Translations under genes and position numbers: made by a program
IMG/VR virus record: IMGVR_UViG_3300017963_000201
Span: 1-64,000 of that record
Strand: one strand, 5' to 3'
Source of the DNA: a virus
DNA length: 64,000 nucleotides
Part shown: in pieces, positions 29,155-39,899 of the stretch
How positions within the stretch are numbered: the first letter of the stretch is position 1
Layout: each line of letters opens with the position of its first letter
Notes under the pieces: model-generated
The model's database searches: none
Seen by the model: the letters and a program-made list of their open reading frames with translations, nothing else
Told to the model about the DNA's origin: nothing

Positions 29155-29515
29155 TAGGATAATCCTTAAACATAGCTATTGATATTGGATCCTGCGAAAT
29201 AGAAGACCATTCTTTACTCAACCTGTCCCCTACTTTATAAATAGATAATTCTAAATTTTTTACTAGATCAAGAAGATCAAGTAGAGGTTTTGTATTAGGC
29301 ATCTTTCTGCCCTTTACCCGCGCACTATACTTAGCGTAACCCCGAATAGCATCCCCGATCTCTGCGTAATAATAATGACTAGTCCATACCGCCTGTTTAT
29401 CTTTTGTAATTCTTAACTTTTGAATAATGAAGGTATGGGTATCACTAACTAATCTTGTATGGCTATCGAGAAGACCTAGTATGTGATATCCAGTTGGTTT
29501 TTTCGCATCAGACAT
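29129..29515 (-). CDS. Hypothetical protein
   Basis: Packed ORF; likely start MSDAKK after AAGGA. Confidence 0.6.
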   Translation of the reverse strand: MSDAKKPTGYHILGLLDSHTRLVSDTHTFIIQKLRITKDKQAVWTSHYYYAEIGDAIRGYAKYSARVKGRKMPNTKPLLDLLDLVKNLELSIYKVGDRLSKEWSSISQDPISIAMFKDYPNGRESTDS

Positions 29516-29519
29516 TACA

Positions 29520-29978
29520 CTACTTCCTTTTTCCCCACGGACCATTGAGTATCGGGCTTGTTTTATTAATATTAGCCAGGTCATCAGCCGTAGGAACAGC
29601 CAATCCCGAGATTTGCATTCGCCAATCCTTGATCATACTTATGTATGGCCGTAAAATCTCTTGAGGCAGATCCTTACCAGTAATCTCGTAACCCGACCCT
29701 ACATTACATTCCCCCAAAATTTCTAAACCCGTCATATCAAACAGCATAGATTCCTGTTTACTGTGGATAGGATGAATAGGAGAAAAAGCAACATTGTGCC
29801 CAACTACCTGGTTATTTTGCCGCACAGGAAGGAGTAGCAAACCTTTAGGAAACCTAAGCTCAAGCCGACTAGATCCCCCTTTCCATAAATTAAGATTAAA
29901 CTCGTTAGCAATGCCCAACACAAGTTTGCCGGAGTACGTCTCACCGATACACAAAAAACTTTTAGACTCTTCGATCAT
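29520..29978 (-). CDS. Hypothetical protein
   Basis: GGGGTGA RBS, packed in operon. Confidence 0.6.
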   Translation of the reverse strand: MIEESKSFLCIGETYSGKLVLGIANEFNLNLWKGGSSRLELRFPKGLLLLPVRQNNQVVGHNVAFSPIHPIHSKQESMLFDMTGLEILGECNVGSGYEITGKDLPQEILRPYISMIKDWRMQISGLAVPTADDLANINKTSPILNGPWGKRK

Positions 29979-29987
29979 GAATCACCC

Positions 29988-30989
29988 CTAACTAGAAATA
30001 ATCTCGTCTATAGCATTTTTCCAAAGTTTATAGTTTTTGCTCATGTCGTAATTCTCAAGAACATAATTCTTAGCGTTATCCAACAAACGCATTCTAAGAT
30101 CAATATCCTCTACCAAGTACATAACGGCATCGTACCAATCCTTCGGATTATTAATCAGCAATCCAGTCTCACCATCCTCAATTGTTTCTTGATAAGGACC
30201 AAAATCAGAAGCAATGGTTACAGCACCTTGGGCTGTATATTCGATAAACTTAAGATTAGATTTTCCTCTATTAAAATTAATATAGGTAATAGGAGCAAGA
30301 CCAATATCAAAACTTAACTGACTAAACATCGCATGAAAGCATTCGAATGGCACAAAAGGAACCACGTAGGTATTCGGTATTCCCAGATCAATACGCCATA
30401 GCTTAATGTATACTTCATCTTCCCTGGCAAGTCTTTCGATAGCAGATTTTGCCAGAGCAACATCTTTTTCATGCGTGTGTGATCCTTGCCACCCAACCAC
30501 TGTCTTTGCTGAATTTTTAGGTGGTGTATGGAACGCACTTAATTCTAAAGAATTTGGCAACACATATATTCGTTTACAGTAGGGCTCATAGACTTCCTTT
30601 AGATTCTCCGTAGCAACAAATAACGCATCCACCTTTCCCAGAAAGTACTTAATGTTATCCTTTACCGCTTTTTTACCAAGGATATTATGCGCAGGATTCC
30701 AGGGCTCGACACAAAAAAGATTATCGTCTATCTCGTAAACTATCTTACAGCCTTTGGCCTGCATCCGAAGCATGTTCTCAAAAACTTCAGCTTTGTACTG
30801 CCTTTGAAAAATTGCTAAATCATATACCCCCAATTGATTAGTTTCCATTTTATCAGTAGGGTAAATATAATAATCTTCTTTATGATTCTGTGCCAAAAAC
30901 TTTAAGGGCAAGAAGAGACGGTGGTAGTAACAACTTCCATAGTCGGCACGGTAAGCAATAACCTTCTTCCGATCATCACTAAAATTCAT
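29988..30989 (-). CDS. Glycosyltransferase (GT4-like, phage type)
   Basis: YHRLFLP, VYEIDDNL, VGWQGSHTH, DIGLAP...FNRGKSNLKFIEY. Confidence 0.88.
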   Translation of the reverse strand: MNFSDDRKKVIAYRADYGSCYYHRLFLPLKFLAQNHKEDYYIYPTDKMETNQLGVYDLAIFQRQYKAEVFENMLRMQAKGCKIVYEIDDNLFCVEPWNPAHNILGKKAVKDNIKYFLGKVDALFVATENLKEVYEPYCKRIYVLPNSLELSAFHTPPKNSAKTVVGWQGSHTHEKDVALAKSAIERLAREDEVYIKLWRIDLGIPNTYVVPFVPFECFHAMFSQLSFDIGLAPITYINFNRGKSNLKFIEYTAQGAVTIASDFGPYQETIEDGETGLLINNPKDWYDAVMYLVEDIDLRMRLLDNAKNYVLENYDMSKNYKLWKNAIDEIISS

Positions 30990-32115
30990 GTTTAGCGCCC
31001 TTCGGCTTTGCGTTTCTAGCCTCTTCCAAAGTATCATGGCGATCAGATTTTTTCTCTTCTACCATTTCCAAAAAGGCTTTTTCAAGCATCTCGGGCTTCA
31101 TACGTGCGCACTTTTGATCCCTACACTCCCAAAGACCCCTACTCTTAGTTTGTTTAGGATTCTTGTAACCCGCGTGCAAATCAAGTAAGGCACCCACAGG
31201 CCGATTGCAAGGGTAATCAACACAGCCACCACTATCAGAAATATTCTTGTGTATCGGGTAGCCAAAAAAATCAGGATCGGTATTTTGAAAAACAGTTATC
31301 ACAGGCTTCTCTAAGGCAGCGGCAGCGTGCATAAATAAGGACTCAATCACAATAGCTGTTTTTACCAAGGGGTGCTGGAACAAAGCAATGGTATCCCTCA
31401 AAGGCATACCTAAACAGTCAAAAGCACCCTCAATCCTCGTTTCGTACTCAAGACCTATTTGCAAAAAATTATACTTATCTTTATACTTCATCACCAAAGG
31501 ACTGACAATTTTAGGATCAAGATCCTTAAGTACATTGGTTTTTTGATACACTTTAATCATCCCCGATCCACCGCATTGGTTACAGGGACCTGGATTATTA
31601 GCAACACCACGACCTCCACACTTACCACAAGGCTTAGTCTGTACATCCCCATCCGAAGGAACTGCACCTTGAATATGTAGCAAAACAACAGGTTTCTTAT
31701 CCTGGCCCAATAACGTATCAGCCGCTCTTTTCTCATAGTCTGTGACATAATAATCCGGAGTACCATTATCAAAGTTCTCTTCAAAACCATACAGGCGGGC
31801 AATAAAGTGCGGAAGATTTTTAGCCCCATGGGCTGCATCATTCATAATATGATCATAGGGAAAAAACTTTTTAAAGTACCGTACCCTTTTATCTTTAACT
31901 TCTCTAGAAAAAAAATCCCCCACAGCATCCTGATCACCCAAAGATATTAATTTATCTATATTAGGGTTATGCCTAAGAACTCTTTCGTAAGTACATAAAA
32001 CTATAATCTCGTCTTCGGGATGTGTTTTCCGGGCAGATCTAATCATAGGAGTTGCCGCTATAACATCCCCACACCCACCCTGAACTAAAAGAATAATCTT
32101 TTGTCTATCTGACAT
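30979..32115 (-). CDS. GT9 (heptosyltransferase-like) glycosyltransferase with inserted DnaJ-type zinc finger
   Basis: GGCGDVIAATPMIR, FLQIG, IESLFMHAAAALEKP; internal CGKCGGRG...CNQCGGSG; GGAGG RBS before ATG 32115. Confidence 0.8.
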   Translation of the reverse strand: MSDRQKIILLVQGGCGDVIAATPMIRSARKTHPEDEIIVLCTYERVLRHNPNIDKLISLGDQDAVGDFFSREVKDKRVRYFKKFFPYDHIMNDAAHGAKNLPHFIARLYGFEENFDNGTPDYYVTDYEKRAADTLLGQDKKPVVLLHIQGAVPSDGDVQTKPCGKCGGRGVANNPGPCNQCGGSGMIKVYQKTNVLKDLDPKIVSPLVMKYKDKYNFLQIGLEYETRIEGAFDCLGMPLRDTIALFQHPLVKTAIVIESLFMHAAAALEKPVITVFQNTDPDFFGYPIHKNISDSGGCVDYPCNRPVGALLDLHAGYKNPKQTKSRGLWECRDQKCARMKPEMLEKAFLEMVEEKKSDRHDTLEEARNAKPKGAKHEF

Positions 32116-32148
32116 GTACCCTCCAAAGTGTAGTCTCTGAAGGGTATA

Positions 32149-32330
32149 ATACAAGAATACTAAGAATCCCATTCGAGACTTAAACTATGCTAAAATTGGT
32201 TAACACAGCTGCTCGATTCCTGCTCAACCAAGAGTTTCGTCTTCCCTTTGATGGAAAGACCAGCGCTCTCAGGGCAGCAGGCTGTCACCGCGTAGGTCGC
32301 GGCCAATTGTTTCAAATTTTCTGCAGCGTT
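32149..32330 (-). ncRNA. Predicted TnpB omega/reRNA (scaffold overlapping tnpB 3' end, guide from phage flank ~GATTCTTAGTATTCTTGTAT)
   Basis: Inferred from the known TnpB architecture; the element 3' end reads ...GAGCAGGAA...GTCTCGAATGG, resembling IS607-type right ends; 5' boundary is approximate. Confidence 0.5.
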
Positions 32331-33392
32331 CTCATCCCGGTCGTGCTTTGTCCCGCACTCACAAAACCAGTGGCGTTCGCTGAGGCTAAGCGCGTCGTAG
32401 ACAAGACCACAGGTCGAACAAGTTTTGCTCGAAGCGAACCAGCGGTTTGCTCGAACGACCGTTGTACCGGCAAACTTAGCTTTGTAGTTGAGCTGCCGTC
32501 CGACTTCGGCCATCGCGGCGTCCATTATGGACTTAGCGAGACGGCGATTCGCTACCATTCCTCTGATGTTCAAGTCTTCAATGCCGATCCAACGGAAACG
32601 TCGGACCAACTGCGCAGTCAATTTGTGCGTCACGTTCTTACGTACGTTGGTGCTTCGTTCGTACAGCCGCTGGAGCTTTGTTCTCGTCTTTTGCCAGTTC
32701 TTCCCTCCTTTGTGTCGACGAGACAACTCTTTGTTCAACATCCGCTGACGCTTTTCTATTTGACGCAACGCTCTAGGTGCTTCGATACGTTCTCCGGTCG
32801 AAAGAACGGCAAGGTTTACGACGCCCAAATCTACTCCGACAGCTGCTTGGGTTTCACAGCGGTGGGGATAAGACCAGCGGGCTTCGTCGACCTTGACCTG
32901 TACCGATACATACCAGTGCCCTGCGTGCTTAGAGAAGCGTGCAGAAAGGATGTTGCCCGGAAAGCGCAACGCTTGCCGGGTTCTAATCCATCCAATCTTT
33001 GGCACTTTGATTCGGAGTGCGTCAAACTGTATTGCTCTTCCCTCAATGCTAAAAGCAGGTTTTGTCCGCTTTTTACTTTTGAAACGCGGGTAACCGGGCT
33101 TTTCTCCGATTTTTACGCGCCGAAAAAAGTGCTGAAAAGCGTTGTTCAAATCTTGCAGAGCGCTATTGGGTACCGCCCAGGGAAGTTCTTTGAGCCAAAA
33201 CAGGTCGCTTCGTTTGCGCGCATTAACTTCGCGATTAATGCTTTGCCAGTTGGGCTTGCCGCCCGCTTTATATACCTGCTGCCAGCGATCCAAACCGAGA
33301 TTGTAAACAAAACGCGCCGCACCAGCAAACCGTTCCAGCTGCGTCATTTGCACGTTGTTCGGGTCGAGCCGAATCCGCTGTCCCAAAATCAT
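32190..33392 (-). CDS. tnpB: TnpB RNA-guided endonuclease
   Basis: HTH_OrfB start (RIRLDPN...ARFVYN), YPRFKSKK, RuvC-I GVDLG, RuvC-II IEDLN, Zn finger CSTCG..CECG, RuvC-III DRDENAA; catalytic D-E-D intact. Confidence 0.97.
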   Translation of the reverse strand: MILGQRIRLDPNNVQMTQLERFAGAARFVYNLGLDRWQQVYKAGGKPNWQSINREVNARKRSDLFWLKELPWAVPNSALQDLNNAFQHFFRRVKIGEKPGYPRFKSKKRTKPAFSIEGRAIQFDALRIKVPKIGWIRTRQALRFPGNILSARFSKHAGHWYVSVQVKVDEARWSYPHRCETQAAVGVDLGVVNLAVLSTGERIEAPRALRQIEKRQRMLNKELSRRHKGGKNWQKTRTKLQRLYERSTNVRKNVTHKLTAQLVRRFRWIGIEDLNIRGMVANRRLAKSIMDAAMAEVGRQLNYKAKFAGTTVVRANRWFASSKTCSTCGLVYDALSLSERHWFCECGTKHDRDENAAENLKQLAATYAVTACCPESAGLSIKGKTKLLVEQESSSCVNQF

Positions 33393-33544
33393 TTGGCGTT
33401 CATTGCCTTTCGTACGATCCGCCGAAGAATTTCGGATATCGACACGTCGTTGCGTTTGGCTTCAAGTCGCAGCCACGCCAAAAGCGGCGGGTCAAAGGAC
33501 AGTTTGATACTCGGCATTCGTTGTAGCTTTTTCGGAGCAGGCAT
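33389..33544 (-). CDS. Ribbon-helix-helix (CopG-like) protein, 51 aa, ATGA-coupled to tnpB
   Basis: Below the ORF track cutoff; translates MPAPKKLQRMPSIKLSFDPPLLAWLRLEAKRNDVSISEILRRIVRKAMNAK. Confidence 0.75.
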   Translation of the reverse strand: MPAPKKLQRMPSIKLSFDPPLLAWLRLEAKRNDVSISEILRRIVRKAMNAK

Positions 33545-33551
33545 GGTGGAG

Positions 33552-33580
33552 AGTATAGCTACGCCCAACGATTACGTCAA
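33552..33580 (-). promoter_or_regulatory. sigma70 promoter for RHH-tnpB (probably leaderless mRNA)
   Basis: TTGACG-17 nt-TATACT, with ATG 7 nt downstream. Confidence 0.75.
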
Positions 33581-33620
33581 GAGGCAACTTGATGGCTGTC
33601 TAGTTAACAAAGGATACACC

Positions 33621-35692
33621 GTGGAAAATACAAGCGAATTAAAATTTCGTCGGAAAGGTTGAATGGGATTATTGCCCATATTGACGCAGGCAAGACCACC
33701 GTAACCGAAAGGTTTTTGTACTATACGGGCGTGACTCATCGCATGGGAGAGGTCCACGATGGACAGGCCGTCATGGACTGGATGCCCCAGGAACAAGAAC
33801 GTGGTATTACCATTACCTCGGCGGTCACCGTGCTGCCCTGGCGCAAACATGAAATCCACCTCATCGACACACCGGGGCACGTGGATTTTACCGTTGAAGT
33901 CGAACGCAGCTTGCGAGTCCTCGACGCAGCGGTTGTGGTCTTTTGTGCCGTGGGAGGAGTCGAGCCCCAATCAGAGACAGTATGGCGACAAGCAGATCGC
34001 TACCAGATCCCCAGATTGGCCTTTATCAACAAAATGGATCGTGTCGGGGCAGACTACGAAGGTTGTGTCGAGCAAATGGTCGACAAGCTGGGCTGCGTTC
34101 CCATGCCAATCCAGATTCCCCTGGGAAAAGAAGAAAACCTCCAGGGAGTGGTCGATCTAGTCAGAATGGAGATATTGCGCTGGCATACTGAAGACCTTGG
34201 GGCCACCTTCGACCGCTCACCCCTCAATGACGACCCTGAAATTGCCGCCCTAGCCGCTCCGTGGAGAGACCGGCTGCTCGAGATTCTGGCGGATGACGAC
34301 GACCAAATCGCCGAGGCTTATCTTGCCGGAGATACCATTGCCACTGAAAAAATCATGGCCGCGGTTCGCAAGCAGTGCCTGTCCAACCGTGCGGTGCCGG
34401 TTTTGTGTGGCTCGGCCCTCAAGAACAAGGGAGTTCAACCCTTGCTCGATGCAGTCGTCGACTTTTTACCAGCGCCGGTGGAATTGCCTCCAGTCCAGGG
34501 GACCCATCCCCAGACCAAAGAACCGGTCGTCATGGAGCGTAATCGCAACGAGCCCTTTTCCGGCGTCGCGTTCAAGGTCCAACTCTGGGACGGACGCAAA
34601 CACACGTATCTACGCATCTACTCGGGCTCGCTGAGCGCCACTGACACGGTCTACAACCCGAACAAGGACGCCAATGAAAAAATAGCTCGCCTTCTGAAGC
34701 TGCACGCCGACAAGAAGTCCCGTATCCAACGGGCTGACGCAGGCGACATCGTGGGCGTCGTGGGGCTGAAAAAGGCGACAACCGGAGACACCCTGTGCAC
34801 CCGAGCCCATCCGGTCGTCTTTGGGCAAATGACGTTCATGACCCCAGTCATCTCCATGGCGGTGGAGGCCAAAACCAGCCGAGTGGAAGAAAAACTCAAA
34901 GAGGTCCTGGTAAAAATGGTCGAAGAAGACCCCACCTTTACCGTGACCCAGGATCCCGACACTGGGCAAACCATTTTGAGCGGTATGGGCGAGCTCCACC
35001 TCGAAATCATCTGTGATCGTCTGGAGCGAGAATTCCACGTTCCGGTCAATGTCGGCAAACCCCAGGTTGTCTATCGCGAGACCTTGTCACAGGCAACCGA
35101 AGCCTCGGAACGCTTCGAGAGAAAATTCGACGAGACAGCCAAGGCCAAAAACATGTTCGCTGGGATAACCCTCAAGGCCGAACCTCTAGGTCGGGGACTC
35201 GGTCTAAAGTTCACAAACACCATCGTCCGCCCCCCGGAAGCACCCCCGATTCCCGCAGACTTCATCCAGGCCGCAGAAGAAGGGGTCCGGGAGGCTGCTG
35301 GCGCCGGGCCGCAGTCAGGCTATCCCATCACCGACATAGCGGTCTCGCTCAAGGGCATCGAGTTCAAAGAGGGTGACACAACGCCCATTGCGGTTCACAT
35401 CGCCGCAGCGGGTGCTTTTCGGCGTGCCTGCGAAAAAGCCGGAACGGAGCTACTGCTTCCCATAATGGCGTTGGAAGCAGTGACGCCCGAAGATTTCACG
35501 GGGGCCGTTATTGGAGACATCAACTCACGGGGAGGCAAGGTCGAAGAGCTCGAGAAGAAAGCATCCAGGACCATCATCCGGGCCCAGGTTCCGATGACCA
35601 AGATGTTCGGCTATGCCACCAGCCTCCGTTCATTGACTGAAGGCCGGGGTACTTTTAGCATGCGGTTTCTCAAGTTTGATAGGGCGTCCTGA
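33621..35692 (+). pseudogene. fusA: Elongation factor G, host-like, 5' end split: GTG 33621 gives [13 protein letters not shown]-stop, and the body continues in the -1 frame from TTG 33659
   Basis: AAAGGA RBS before GTG 33621; body has [57 protein letters not shown]; conserved RNIG is replaced by CGG AAAGGTTGAAT GGG. Could still be expressed via the TTGA stop/start overlap. Confidence 0.85.
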
Positions 35693-35698
35693 CCGGGT

Positions 35699-35890
35699 AT
35701 GAGCAACCAGCCCCCAACCAGTAGCGAATCACGGTGTTACAGGGGCCTGGTCTTGTGGCTTGTGTTGGTCGCAGCCGGAATCCTAGGCATGCTTTTGGGG
35801 TTTTGGATAGGACGTCGGGCCGATTCGTCTTACCTCGAGCTTCAGGTTGTCTCCGATCGTATAAATACCAGACAAAAACGTCAAGAGTAA
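35699..35890 (+). pseudogene. 5' fragment of a single-pass membrane protein gene, truncated at the island border
   Basis: TM segment GLVLWLVLVAAGILGMLLGFWIG; GC-rich codons change abruptly to AT-rich sequence near 35855. Confidence 0.55.
35856..35884 (-). promoter_or_regulatory. sigma70 promoter firing leftward into the GC-rich island (antisense to fusA)
   Basis: TTGACG-17 nt-TACGAT. Confidence 0.65.
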
Positions 35891-36387
35891 TTATTTTAAA
35901 TTCCAATCTAACAAATTTATAAATATATCTTTTAGGCTATTATTATTACTAAAACACCTAATTATATTTTTAGTTAGTTTCAAAATTCTGGCATAAAACT
36001 TGCTTAAACTAAATAAAAATCTTACCAAAGAAAACGCGGATTCATACTGTGAATAAAGGGTGAAACGAGAAAAAGCCACTGACACAAAAAATTACACATA
36101 TATCAAACAACAAATCAAAGAATGGCATATTCTTTTGTACATTTAGGATTATAAGACCGATTTTTTTGATTAAATTTAAGTTATATAAAACAATGACATA
36201 AAAACACAAACAGAAATAATTCCGTAGTTGAACAAAAAACACAGGAATTTTTAGATTAAGGTTTGTATGGAGCACCTCAATAATTAAGGCATTTTTATCG
36301 AAAAAATACAAAAAAAATCCAGGGAATAATTCTCTATATATTACATAGTTATACCCCCATGTACGATTTAACTTGACAAAGTTTTTG
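35890..36387. other. AT-rich, A-tract-rich intergenic region at the strand divergence; candidate replication origin or control region
   Basis: No credible ORF, many A4-A8 tracts, phage gene orientation flips here. Confidence 0.45.
35989..36004 (+). promoter_or_regulatory. sigma54-type -24/-12 promoter
   Basis: TGGCATAAAACTTGCT = GG-N10-GC, close to TGGCAC-N5-TTGCW. Confidence 0.55.
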
Positions 36388-36987
36388 GCTTGCGATTTGC
36401 TACCTTTCTTGCAAGAAGCCGAACAGCGATAGCTGTTTGGATCGCGCAAGCACGGACCCCGTAAGGGGTTCGTGGACCTAACATTTGCCCCTTGCCTCTT
36501 ATGTTTTTATCATGCATGTTAAAAAATATACAAGCCATTTAGAGTATGCCATTCATGGTGGGTTTTAACCCACCATTAGAAGGCATTTAAATCAATTGAG
36601 GCCGAGCAGGTTGATACTGCTCGGGTGATAATTGGTTTGAATGACTTCTCTTTCGTTTGATATTTGATTTATGATTTGCAAAACATATCTTAAAACTTAG
36701 ATTTTGTCCTTGTAAGCAGAGATCTGTCTTTTTGGTAAATCAAAATATTCAGTAATAATTAATAAGTTAATGTTCTTTCAAAGGGGATGTGAATGGAACT
36801 ATAGTCTCATTTACCCTATCGGGTATGGGTGATGGTGCTACGCACCTATCACCCACCATTCGACTCGTTCCATCCACATCCGAAACATGAGAATAGGCAG
36901 AAGCCTGCACTCGTGCTTCGCTTATGCGAAGCACTCCTTTGTTCCTGCCTAGCTACCGGCTCAGAAAAAATCCGGTATTATATTCTC
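36388..36987. ncRNA. ~600 nt highly structured non-coding element (candidate large ncRNA or ssDNA origin hairpins)
   Basis: More than 10 stems including 36419-36440, 36451-36474, 36546-36586, 36587-36641, 36659-36750, 36785-36881, 36889-36987. Confidence 0.6.
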
Positions 36988-36988
36988 T

Positions 36989-37366
36989 ATGAAAACCATC
37001 ATTGCAGGATCCAGAAATATAGAAGACTATATTTTAGTCTGTGATGCTGTGGCAGAATCTAAGTTTACTATTACTGAGGTAGTATCTGGTAGTGCTAAGG
37101 GTATTGATCAACTTGGAGAACGTTGGGCAAAAGAGAATAATATACCTATTACTAAATTTCCTGCTGATTGGGAAAAGTATGCTAAGAAAGCAGGATATAT
37201 CCGTAATCAAAAAATGGCCAAGTATGCTGATCAATTAATCCTAGTTTGGGATGGATTTTCTCGTGGATCTAGTGGTATGCTTCGCACAGCTTATTTTTTA
37301 GGTTTGAAAGTCTATGTCAAACTTGTTAGTAAAGGAGGGCCATATGCCCAGAAAAAAGAAGGTTAG
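36989..37366 (+). CDS. SLOG/YspA-like (DUF2493) protein
   Basis: MKTIIAGSR, EVVSGSAKGID, ADWEKY.K.AG.IRN.KMA, WDG.SRG. Confidence 0.85.
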   Translation: MKTIIAGSRNIEDYILVCDAVAESKFTITEVVSGSAKGIDQLGERWAKENNIPITKFPADWEKYAKKAGYIRNQKMAKYADQLILVWDGFSRGSSGMLRTAYFLGLKVYVKLVSKGGPYAQKKEG

Positions 37367-37853
37367 GAAGGAACCCCTTAGTTACGATCCAATTAATGAT
37401 TACGTCGTAGACATGGCAAATCAGCTTATCGCTAAACACCATCCCCACCTTGCAGATGCTAAAATGGCATATCTTTGGCGCAATAAACCTTTGATGGAAT
37501 CTGGACAAGCGGTATTTGCTAAAGCCAAAAAAATCACAGGAGAGATGCACGCTCTTTGTGATAAAGAATTTTTGATCGTGATTGTCTACCCTATGTGGAA
37601 TGATTTAAAAGAAGAAGAAAAGTGGGCCATATTGGATCATGAACTTACTCATTGCTTTGTAGACGAAGACGAAGAAGGCGAACGAGTATGTAAGATCCTA
37701 CCCCATGACTTTAGTGATTTTGGAGAAATTATAGTCAGACATGGTTTATACGGGAATCTAAAAGTCATTGCTGAAGCTATGAAAATAAGAAAGCTAAAGA
37801 AAGAAACAAAAGTTACAAAAGCGGCTCAAGAAGAAGCACCGGCTCTACAGTGA
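37344..37853 (+). CDS. Putative phage metallopeptidase
   Basis: HHPHL, ILDHELTHC, PHDFSDF (HExxH). Confidence 0.75.
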   Translation: MPRKKKVRKEPLSYDPINDYVVDMANQLIAKHHPHLADAKMAYLWRNKPLMESGQAVFAKAKKITGEMHALCDKEFLIVIVYPMWNDLKEEEKWAILDHELTHCFVDEDEEGERVCKILPHDFSDFGEIIVRHGLYGNLKVIAEAMKIRKLKKETKVTKAAQEEAPALQ

Positions 37854-38677
37854 AACTTGTCCTAGCAGACTGCTTCGATCTTTGTAAGCGTATCCCTTCT
37901 GGTAAGATTAATCTTGTCTATGTGGATCCCCCATTCAACACAGGTAAAAAACAAAAAGGAGGGCGTATAAAGTTTACATCCTCTAACTCTGGATCTCGAA
38001 AAGGTTATGCTGGTAGAAAATACAAAACTGAAAGCATACCTGGCCCCTCATACCAAGACATCTACAAAGATTATATTTCTTATTGGGGGCCGAGATTTTT
38101 AGAGATGGCTCGAATATTAACTTCTAACGGATCTTTGTTTATTCATATTGATTACCGCCAAGCCCCTTACGTGCGGGTATTTCTTGATCAGCATCTTTAT
38201 TTTATGAACGAAATAATTTGGGCATACGACTATGGAGCACGCACAAAAAAGAGGTGGCCAGCAAAACACGATAATATACTTTGGTACGTAAAGGATCCTG
38301 CAAATTATGTTTTTAACTATTCGAAAATTGATCGGATACCTTACTTGGCTCCCAGCCTTCAAACTCCAGAACGAAGACAATTGGGAAAAACACCGACTAC
38401 CGTTTGGTGGGGTACCATTGTCCCAACCAATTCAAAAGAACGCACAGGATACCCAACCCAAAAACCAAGATGGCTACTAGAGCGGATTTTGAAGGTGCAT
38501 ACAAAGCCCCGAGATTGGGTCTGTGACCCTTGTGCTGGTTCAGGTACCCTAGGGGCTGTAGCTAGTTCCCTAGACCGTAGGTGCCTTCTCGGGGACTCTA
38601 GCGAAGAAGCAATAGAGTGTATGCAGAAAAGACTCTCTCAGTACAGTCCCCAAATCATTAAAATAGGCAAAAAATAA
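37850..38677 (+). CDS. DNA N6-adenine/N4-cytosine methyltransferase (beta class)
   Basis: VDPPFNT, YPTQKP, DPCAGSGT. Confidence 0.93.
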   Translation: MKLVLADCFDLCKRIPSGKINLVYVDPPFNTGKKQKGGRIKFTSSNSGSRKGYAGRKYKTESIPGPSYQDIYKDYISYWGPRFLEMARILTSNGSLFIHIDYRQAPYVRVFLDQHLYFMNEIIWAYDYGARTKKRWPAKHDNILWYVKDPANYVFNYSKIDRIPYLAPSLQTPERRQLGKTPTTVWWGTIVPTNSKERTGYPTQKPRWLLERILKVHTKPRDWVCDPCAGSGTLGAVASSLDRRCLLGDSSEEAIECMQKRLSQYSPQIIKIGKK

Positions 38678-38728: not shown

Positions 38729-38935
38729 ATGCTACACAACACTTCAATAAGGCTATCGAAGCAAGAAAAAAAATGGCTTGCTTCGTTTGGGAGACCAGTT
38801 GGGGAGCAAATCAGGATACACAATAGGCTTGTGCGAAAGTTGTATGCCCTGGCCGAAAAAAACAAGACGATTACCTTAGCAGAAGCTCTATCAATATTAG
38901 ATAGCGATCCACTTGAGGAGTCTGATGCAGAATAA
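38729..38935 (+). CDS. Small RHH-like DNA-binding protein
   Basis: TSIRLSKQEKKWL...PVGEQIR beta-alpha-alpha pattern; AGGAGG RBS. Confidence 0.55.
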   Translation: MLHNTSIRLSKQEKKWLASFGRPVGEQIRIHNRLVRKLYALAEKNKTITLAEALSILDSDPLEESDAE

Positions 38936-39899
38936 GTACGAAATTATCCGAGAGCTGTTCAAAGAATATAGCTTGCTAAACTACCCACTAGCAAGCTACG
39001 ACGAGTTTATTCAACGAATAATGCCCGAAAGGTGCTTCAAGCTACTCTACGCGGCGACTCAAAAAATGGGCTACAGCCAAGCTGATTTTGTCGCAATGCC
39101 CCAACTAATGTACACGGTTTGGGTAACTGAAAAAACAGGTCGTCCTGTTTTTGAAGTCCGTCCCGATATTATGGAAGCCTTACGGGATACGGACATTCCA
39201 GACTTTCCTTTGGAAGATCTAAAACTACCATTCGAAGGAATAATATTAAAGATCGATCAAGACACTTTTCATGGGCCTGCAGCTAACACGGGAGTTTTGT
39301 ACGTAACCCAAGTAGACTCTGATCGCTTTCGTGTCGTCTTTGATATTAACGACGAAGATACACATTTTATGAACCTTACCACAGATGGGTGCCATACTCT
39401 TAAACAATCAATTGAGAAATCGACACAGGCCACAAAAGAGATCCCCGAGCATATTCTTAAGCAATACGAAGAGTCACGAATCTACTTTGATTACTATGAC
39501 TCTGATGTTTTTCGCTTTGTAATTAATCTTGTTTTGTACATTACAAGTCCAGATAGCGATGTGAAGCAAGACAAAACCAAGATACATGCTTTACATCAAA
39601 AGTTACAAGCGACAAAAAAGAAAAACAAAAGAGAAATTATTCTAAAGCAACTTAGAAAAGCTAAAGACCACAAAAGATATATCGTAGGTGCAAATACTAA
39701 ACTTACGAAAGAGTACAAGGCATCGCTGACTGATGCCGGAAAAAAGTGGGCACTCACTCACAGATTCAAAGTACGGGGACACTTCAGAAAGCAAGCCTGT
39801 GGTAAAGGTTATCAAGACCACAAGCGCATTTGGGTTTCTCCGTATTGGAAAGGTCCTACCTACGCAGAAATGCTAGGTATGAATTACGTGGTAACATGA
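38925..39899 (+). CDS. Conserved-type phage hypothetical protein (VRGHFR.Q.CG motif)
   Basis: C-terminal KVRGHFRKQACG...RIWVSPYWKG. Confidence 0.65.
   Translation: MQNKYEIIRELFKEYSLLNYPLASYDEFIQRIMPERCFKLLYAATQKMGYSQADFVAMPQLMYTVWVTEKTGRPVFEVRPDIMEALRDTDIPDFPLEDLKLPFEGIILKIDQDTFHGPAANTGVLYVTQVDSDRFRVVFDINDEDTHFMNLTTDGCHTLKQSIEKSTQATKEIPEHILKQYEESRIYFDYYDSDVFRFVINLVLYITSPDSDVKQDKTKIHALHQKLQATKKKNKREIILKQLRKAKDHKRYIVGANTKLTKEYKASLTDAGKKWALTHRFKVRGHFRKQACGKGYQDHKRIWVSPYWKGPTYAEMLGMNYVVT

Follow-up and report, generated by a model that had tools for sequence, protein, structure and literature searches.

How did a piece of bacterial chromosome carrying a translation-factor gene come to lie against a TnpB element that lacks a transposase, in the middle of a phage genome, and could that element spread it further? 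The window analysed here (the whole stretch of DNA, 64 kb) is the first part of a single 144,959-bp virus record, IMGVR_UViG_3300017963_000201, with a CheckV completeness of about 79%, whose genes include a portal protein, a large terminase, a DNA polymerase, a helicase and an NAD ligase. The whole record has a content of guanine and cytosine (GC) of about 0.38 save for a few richer patches. The locus in question is a GC-rich island of 3,688 bp at 32168-35855, with a GC of 0.51-0.57 over 32001-36000 against 0.36-0.41 on either side and a drop to 0.26-0.31 directly beyond 35.86 kb. An initial annotation, made from the letters alone, had described it as a foreign block holding tnpB, a small ribbon-helix-helix (RHH) gene, a fusA-like gene for an elongation factor G (EF-G) and the start of a next gene; the GC contrast and the contents, as read by Pfam, bear this out. 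We find that the island replaced a phage gene, and the best explanation, to which we give a probability of about one half, is a composite of an element from a phage clade and captured bacterial DNA, assembled in two steps.

The replacement is seen directly in a sibling phage. A 49.7 kb contig from run X3 (L175) matches window positions 29500-32167 and 35856-38500 with 757 different nucleotides (nt) between them, at an identity of 99.2% over 6.1 kb to the left and 97.2-98.9% to the right. The same allele occurs in an ENA/JGI assembly (L177, L302), and it is known from at least four contigs in two archives. Homology to the sibling ends at 32167 and restarts at 35856, which places the island at 32168-35855, in agreement with the GC profile and with BLAST of L175 and L177 against the window; the AT at 32166-32167 is common to the right end of the element and the phage. 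The anatomy first proposed was nearly exact, its edges of 32169 and 35854 lying within 1-3 nt of those defined by the sibling.

The sibling's 757 nt (GC 0.37) encode a leaderless gene of 252 amino acids (aa), the first of the leftward operon (L175:6098-6856, minus strand), whose ATG lies 6 nt past the TACGAT box of a promoter-like site, TTGACG-17-TACGAT. This site is present in the window at 35856-35884 (minus strand), by the right edge as first described, and there it points in antisense direction across the captured DNA and on into the element. The stretch of the gene that the island substitutes starts 6 nt ahead of the ATG and stops 8 nt short of the stop codon's end, so the island is a replacement, not a simple insertion. 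No other copy of the 252-aa gene exists in the island-bearing record, and its protein has no match in Pfam or PHROG; in the Atlas it gives weak leads to DUF669-like phage proteins (score 0.88-0.89, TM 0.33-0.37). Because the sibling's stretch has native GC while the island shows bacterial synteny, the island is the derived state, and flanks that are about 99% identical to the sibling suggest that its acquisition was recent. The initial annotation had instead joined a GG from each junction into an empty site, TACGATCGGGATTCTTAG, and had named a different empty-site sequence in relatives as evidence against its proposal. The sibling has just such a different sequence, the 757 nt with the 252-aa gene, and its junctions, TACGAT/GCAACT and CTACAT/TCTTAG, are without GG. 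The predicted site is not present in relatives, and a search of IMG/VR for its 18-mer gave no match.

The island is real and not an assembly artefact. Public-run contigs were aligned to 29500-38500; one of the runs may be the record's own source, and the second study is independent. Both junctions are bridged by contigs from two studies, and the EF-G protein is found on four contigs. One 35.6 kb Logan contig with 99.99% identity to the window over 22 kb covers the island and both flanks, a 2018 sediment run (X1) has the same arrangement in one contig with a flat depth over the island, and in a 2021 seawater run (X2) from a different study the joints are crossed by separate contigs, with a bridge of 327 nt on the left and of 36 nt on the right. 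We also note that in X2 the island is a separate 3,422-nt contig with a depth of 7.6 against about 10 in both flanks (window positions 32470-32494 and 35872-35891), and that the left contig breaks 300 nt inside the island, in the region of the omegaRNA, and not at the joint. The lower depth may reflect mixed alleles or a further copy of the element in that sample.

The left part of the island is a non-autonomous RHH(Arc-like)-tnpB-omegaRNA element of 1.5 kb (32166-33667, minus strand), delimited by conservation of its ends with seven relatives. Its right end is common to 13 elements, ...AAGTC(N4)A(T/G)GGGA(T), with unrelated sequence beyond, and finishes in GGGAT in 11 of them. In the window the conserved end is ...GAATGGGAT at 32166, which displaces the GAATGG at 32169 first taken as the right end. 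A GG core within the ..ATGGGAT was rejected, as the GAT would then need to be conserved flank in 11 unrelated contexts. At the other side, the left end by position is CCCATTCAACC from 33667, and the by-position alignment, which leaves TAAT as flank, fits the relative L008 best. Five RHH-type relatives have CCAT in front of their left end, and two other relatives have TCAT. Some 18 nt from the left-end edge there is a conserved hairpin (GGCGAAC..GTTCGCC type), both arms of which show changes. Two other readings of this end are possible, one with a left end 5 nt shorter and a canonical CCAT flank, the other with a nested-insertion origin of an inverted 10-mer. This 10-mer, GAATGGGATT, stands at the right end (32165-32174) and, inverted, at the joint of left end and EF-G gene (33661-33670). 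By position the window's left end reads CCCATTC where L008 has GGGATTC, so that the element bears a 7-nt terminal inverted repeat with AT flanking each side, which the relatives do not have.

Both the tnpB gene and its omegaRNA look intact at the level of sequence. The 400-aa TnpB (32190-33392, minus strand) carries the HTH_OrfB, OrfB_IS605 (RuvC) and zinc-finger Cas12f1-like TNB domains of Pfam with E values of 1e-13, 9e-27 and 1e-18, all past the cut-offs, and aligns over its full length with ISDra2 TnpB (8bf8; E 7e-64). The RuvC residues D188, E272 and D353, invariant across an alignment of 30 sequences, are present, and the zinc-finger cysteines C325, C328, C344 and C346 are kept. The omegaRNA scaffold (32166-32369, minus strand) overlaps the 3' end of tnpB. 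In an alignment of 13 sequences its 39 pairs have 95.3% of cells paired, with compensatory changes at 25 pairs; none of 500 shuffles was as good, and slid controls reached 34-43% paired. A pseudoknot stem (TCGAG/CTCGA) lies 7 nt from the right end.

Six relatives share the RHH gene (33389-33544, minus strand; 51 aa, Arc-like). Its stop codon and the start of tnpB overlap in ATGA, and its ATG lies 7 nt past the -10 box of a promoter-like site, TTGACG-17-TATACT, found by promoter scan at 33552-33580 (minus strand); the -35 region, AAGTTGC..CTTGAC, is conserved in relatives. All six aligned family members match RHH_1 of Pfam, with a best E of 2e-6, and the window protein alone scores 19.4 bits against a cut-off of 20.5. 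A search of PDB sequences with the family profile gave no RHH match and one spurious match at 0.026. RHH ('Arc') proteins in TnpB transposons repress the transposon promoter (bioRxiv 10.64898/2026.09.24.754181), and by this published work on related proteins the RHH protein here would repress the element's own promoter.

The clade to which the element belongs looks phage-specific, as every member known so far lies on a phage-like contig. Homologs of TnpB number in the thousands, and the 120 closest, at 59-80% identity, are almost all metagenomic proteins, several of them on contigs of 80-290 kb; those at 60-80% come from phage-like or IMG/VR contigs. All homolog neighbourhoods that were read look like phage, with small unannotated ORFs (open reading frames), Phage_base_V, Prim-Pol and IMG/VR records. 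Among 185,579 bacterial and archaeal species genomes, a single-protein scan gave no relatives and a profile scan gave a best identity of 44-46%; a scan of JGI metagenomes gave just three close elements. Three IMG/VR loci (L014, L015 and L016) have TnpB genes 64-68% identical to the window's, with a GC of 0.53 inside phages of GC 0.34-0.40, and they lack an RHH gene, and their left end differs. A GC above that of the phage thus seems to be a property of the clade and not just of this island. Run X3, the sibling's sample, also holds a low-depth contig of 157 nt that shares about 87% identity with the element's right end (32166-32219); its match stops at 32166, which points to a related element in another context there.

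We further note a regularity in where these relatives sit, read for Shine-Dalgarno sequence (SD) and start codon in four RHH-type elements (L007, L008, L293 and L276) and in L014 and L015. Seven relatives have a left end that can be defined. In six of these, the preceding CAT is the start codon, ATG, of a divergent phage ORF that is long (144-744 aa) and unrelated, and the DNA past the right end, reversed, holds the SD of the same gene (GGAGGGTGAG/ATG in L008, GGAGAAGGCGAG/ATG in L007). The split of SD and ATG indicates that these elements sit precisely between SD and start codon. In left ends of the RHH type an outward GGGAG(G), at a distance of 9-12 nt from the edge, could stand in for the SD that was displaced.

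The rest of the island is 2.19 kb of bacterial DNA (33668-35855) that abuts the left end of the element and consists of an EF-G paralogue and a fragment of a membrane-protein gene. The EF-G gene (33668-35692, plus strand, in an ORF from 33659) has all five domains (GTP_EFTU, D2, III, IV and C) and the G1-G4 motifs including NKMD, and deviates at 7 of 234 conserved columns (controls 0-8). It is at most 74% identical to anything among 5.8 billion proteins; its best matches among phage GenBank records, at 65-71%, amount to generic similarity. The best relatives lie on bacterial contigs in the order PilZ, isochorismatase-like, EF-G and a membrane ORF of 325-362 aa, and are, judging by these neighbourhoods, chromosomal paralogues outside the str operon. 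The second piece, the first 52 codons of a bacterial membrane-protein gene (35699-35855, plus strand), is cut at the island edge, from where its ORF runs into phage DNA to 35890. It ends in SSYLELQVVSD, which matches YLDLQAYSD and YLQLQANSD in the N-terminus of the membrane ORF downstream of EF-G in L299 and L262, so that the captured piece is one contiguous chromosomal stretch. The synteny in these two contigs agrees with the earlier proposal that adjacent host chromosome came along.

The EF-G gene arrived without its beginning. Its homologs begin 10-20 residues upstream (..RNIGIIAH), a space that in the window is the left end of the element. The sequence is clearly host-derived from IIAH onward, and the GGG before ATT ATT belongs, by position, to the element. 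About 13 codons, the start codon and the ribosome-binding site were lost. A start for EF-G had been read at 33621-33653; we rejected it, as this stretch lies within the element's conserved left end. The only in-frame starts left are an ATT and a TTG right after an SD-like run. The phage promoter-like site at 35856-35884 opposes the gene and is the only such site placed to transcribe across it, and the promoter scan found none within the element that faces EF-G. A gene without a start and antisense to a phage promoter-like site gives no support to the idea of a delivered translation factor, and because the capture is so recent (sibling at 99%), the intact ORF says nothing on selection. We infer that EF-G is an inert passenger.

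The history of the island is recorded in three joints, all at AT, two of which (J1 and J2) are the element's own termini. J1, between right end and phage, reads GGG[AT]TCTTAG in the window and CTAC[AT]TCTTAG in the sibling. J2, between host DNA and left end, reads ...GGCAATA[AT]CCCATTCAACC. J3, between phage promoter and host DNA, reads TACG[AT]CGGAGA in the window and TACG[AT]GCAACT in the sibling, and the host Asp codon at this joint is GAY in homologs. At J1 stands the CAT found ahead of the left end in each of the seven relatives, and J2 has TAAT, not CCAT. In the proposed history the element would first have landed in the phage at ...CTACAT/TCTTAG..., the usual YCAT-type site of its clade; an aberrant recombination at its left end would then have swapped the stretch from the promoter to the left end for host DNA. 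The non-canonical TAAT at J2 fits such a later aberrant event better than a normal insertion, and we favour two steps because the clade is phage-only, J1 is canonical and J2 is not. That J1 and J2 are so precise speaks for end-specific chemistry over random breakage. The AT at all joints fits a small serine recombinase acting in trans, and microhomology joining gives the same picture.

Once formed, the island could be copied by its own nuclease. The predicted guide, TCTTAGTATTCTTGTATTAT (32146-32165, minus strand), is the 20 nt of phage sequence past the right end and spans the last codons of the lost 252-aa gene and the spacer ahead of the GT9 gene. The genome has no second copy of it, and the sibling carries it unchanged after ...CTACAT, in keeping with the earlier suggestion that the guide matches the phage site. 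The target-adjacent motif (TAM) inferred from the sequence before the left end of seven relatives is YCAT, and ACAT stands before the guide match in the sibling, which makes RNA-guided cutting of the island-free allele plausible. If ACAT is an acceptable TAM, TnpB would cut island-free genomes at ACAT + TCTTAGTATTCTTGTA in mixed infections, and repair templated by a genome with the island would then transfer all of it, passenger included.

Several points weigh against this account. The intermediate allele, with the 252-aa gene and the element, is not found among the contigs that carry that gene, and no donor genome was found, so that we can only infer the order of events. The AT on the donor side of J3 is a prediction from the Asp codon of homologs, and two steps are less parsimonious than one. 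The TAM comes from only seven elements, and the sibling's ACAT differs from YCAT at one position. The EF-G ORF is without decay and an SD-like GGAAAGG in the left end faces it, so some EF-G may be made. Finally, with the record at about 79% completeness, a transposase could sit in the missing part.

A single event, close to what the initial annotation had pictured, is the alternative that fares best, and we consider it unlikely. It would have the element sit in a bacterial fusA paralogue and move by pairing its true right end with a surrogate site 2.2 kb past its left end (one-ended or pseudo-end transposition), carrying host flank along and deleting 757 bp at the target. This needs only one step, explains an exact right-end joint and captured DNA that runs straight on from the left end as a contiguous chromosomal piece, and agrees with the AT on the phage side of the promoter joint; relatives of IS607 type, moreover, move via excised circles cut at core dinucleotides (bioRxiv 10.1101/2023.11.20.567912). 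The distribution of the element speaks otherwise, since close tnpB relatives are missing from the species genomes and lie on phage-like contigs instead. Nor does the joint of fusA and left end have the CCAT found in five of five RHH-type relatives, the predicted empty site was not found, and integration of a circle is an insertion and not a 757-bp replacement, so that a second, deleting step would still be required.

Plain illegitimate recombination of phage and host DNA during infection, through microhomology and without transposon chemistry at the edges, would account for the missing transposase and for joints that share just 1-2 nt (AT at the left, A or AT at the right). It would leave to chance that the left edge of the island, within the 2-nt AT overlap, is the right-end terminus set by 13 relatives, and that the internal joint of host and element is, by position, the left-end boundary; with breakpoints placed at random in a block of some 3.7 kb, the chance of each coincidence is about 1 in 1,000, and we hold this explanation to be improbable.

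The two-step composite with an inert passenger has also to be set against EF-G as selected, functional cargo. Driven by signals in the left end, the gene would then provide the phage with a translation factor or yield antisense RNA to host fusA. The ORF is intact with all GTPase motifs, its deviations lie within the control range, the allele is present in samples of 2018 and 2021, and four RHH-type relatives have their left end directly against a phage gene's ATG, with the outward GGGAG(G) 9-12 nt off, where the window has GGAAAGG. The sequencing runs listed for the locus include no RNA run. The absence of the native start and about 13 codons, with only TTG or ATT to begin from, the lack of a promoter-like site in the element that faces the gene and the antisense phage site make such a role a long shot; the recency of the capture takes the meaning from the intact ORF, and the 52-codon fragment of a neighbour came along as would be expected of random cargo. 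An assembly chimera of phage and bacterial reads, to which the sharp GC steps at both edges might point, is scarcely credible given that a separately made assembly of one run has identical junctions on one 35.6 kb contig, that contigs from a second study, another year and another habitat bridge both joints by at least 31 nt, and that depth is flat across the island in X1.

Beyond the origin of the island stands the question of what it does. A working RNA-guided homing drive with 2.2 kb of host cargo, from a clade adapted to the gap between SD and ATG with a left end that supplies the SD, is a tentative proposal that we think more apt to be wrong than right by a good measure. If true, a natural 'drive with cargo' would spread host DNA through phage populations while deleting a phage gene. 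With both alleles known at about 99% flank identity, the locus offers a dated, nucleotide-resolved case of phage uptake of chromosomal DNA beside a TnpB element. It raises the questions of whether transposase-less TnpB elements spread in phages by RNA-guided homing, dragging unrelated host genes along, and of what TAM and end chemistry serve a phage-specific IS607 offshoot with a terminal AT in place of GG. It also counsels caution in adaptive readings of phage 'auxiliary' genes, as this EF-G gene is decapitated, antisense to a phage promoter-like site and accompanied by a fragment of its neighbour.

Other features of the surroundings may be noted briefly. The first remaining gene of the leftward operon is a GT9-like glycosyltransferase gene (30979-32115, minus strand; start ATG at 32115 with GGAGGG upstream), for which no relatives were found in IMG/VR. 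Gene direction switches at about 36 kb, with the minus strand used to the left and the plus strand to the right, so that the island lies at the head of the leftward block. At the switch lies a very AT-rich non-coding stretch (35900-36990, GC 0.26-0.31) with the cumulative GC-skew minimum, which makes it a candidate for a divergent control region or an origin of replication; at 36685, within this stretch, 5 nt are inserted in the sibling. Another GC-rich patch (0.49-0.52) at 83114-85099 of the genome (L005:1115-3100, plus strand) encodes a 661-aa SNF2-family helicase and may be a further foreign acquisition. A gene at 38913-39899 (plus strand), a few kb from tnpB, a Cas12 ancestor, has a precomputed annotation on Logan contigs as PF26125, AcrVA2-like (anti-Cas12a family); our own Pfam scan of this ORF gave no match at E 0.001. 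Rfam and tRNA scans of the window gave no match.

The affinity of the element is with IS607, with qualifications. No resolvase (PF00239) or Y1 (PF01797) match exists in the 145 kb record, in accord with the initial description of an element without transposase, and the RHH gene occupies the position of TnpA. Among the nearest relatives from genomes (42-45% identity), L183, L186, L188 and L237 have a MerR+Resolvase TnpA overlapping tnpB. Their right ends have the same geometry as the window element and finish in ...GGAACGG, which fits the GG core published for IS607-type TnpA_S (bioRxiv 10.1101/2023.11.20.567912); the phage clade has AT in those two bases. The kinship with IS607 first suggested is thus upheld through the serine TnpA of relatives, and the GG core and exact end that went with it are not: the right end is GGGAT (11 of 13) and the left flank CCAT or TCAT. 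The Y1 (HUH) TnpA of the IS200/IS605 family is absent from the record and was not seen beside the closest relatives.

Compared with IS607 elements and IStrons, which pair a serine TnpA_S with TnpB (bioRxiv 10.1101/2023.11.20.567912), the window element likewise has an omegaRNA pseudoknot stem in the 3' part, 7 nt from the right end, a guide made of the DNA past that end and no long terminal inverted repeats. It differs in having the RHH gene in place of TnpA, in ending ...TGGGAT and not ...GG, in a flank before the left end of YCAT and not TGGG, and in that its close members are known only from phage-like contigs. The Arc-containing IS605-family transposons of Moon et al. (bioRxiv 10.64898/2026.09.24.754181) similarly encode a small RHH protein beside the element promoter, which Arc was shown there to repress. 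In those elements arc is as a rule found with a Y1 tnpA and points away from tnpB, whereas the RHH gene here is leaderless, co-directional with tnpB and translationally coupled to it (ATGA), with no tnpA and with relatives of IS607 type.

The ISDra2 TnpB-omegaRNA (PDB 8bf8/8exa/8h1j) shares the domain set and the catalytic triad, and its omegaRNA likewise overlaps the gene at the 3' end. The role proposed here, in which the element-free allele is cut and the element copied back by repair, is the one published for TnpB homing (bioRxiv PMC10055086). Differences from ISDra2 lie in the TAM, TTGAT against the YCAT inferred here, in the host, a virulent-looking phage of 145 kb, and in the unit that would be copied, which adds 2.2 kb of unrelated bacterial DNA and removes a phage gene.

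Elements of the IS91, ISCR and ISEcp1 types mobilise flanking chromosomal DNA from one true end with a surrogate site or none, by HUH or DDE transposases that are carried along. The capture in the window likewise shows one true end with flanking DNA, in an element without a transposase. To our knowledge, capture of adjacent genes is not an established phenomenon for IS607- or IS605-type elements. The window thus holds a transposase-less RHH-TnpB element from a phage clade related to IS607, with AT termini, joined to a fresh capture of bacterial DNA.

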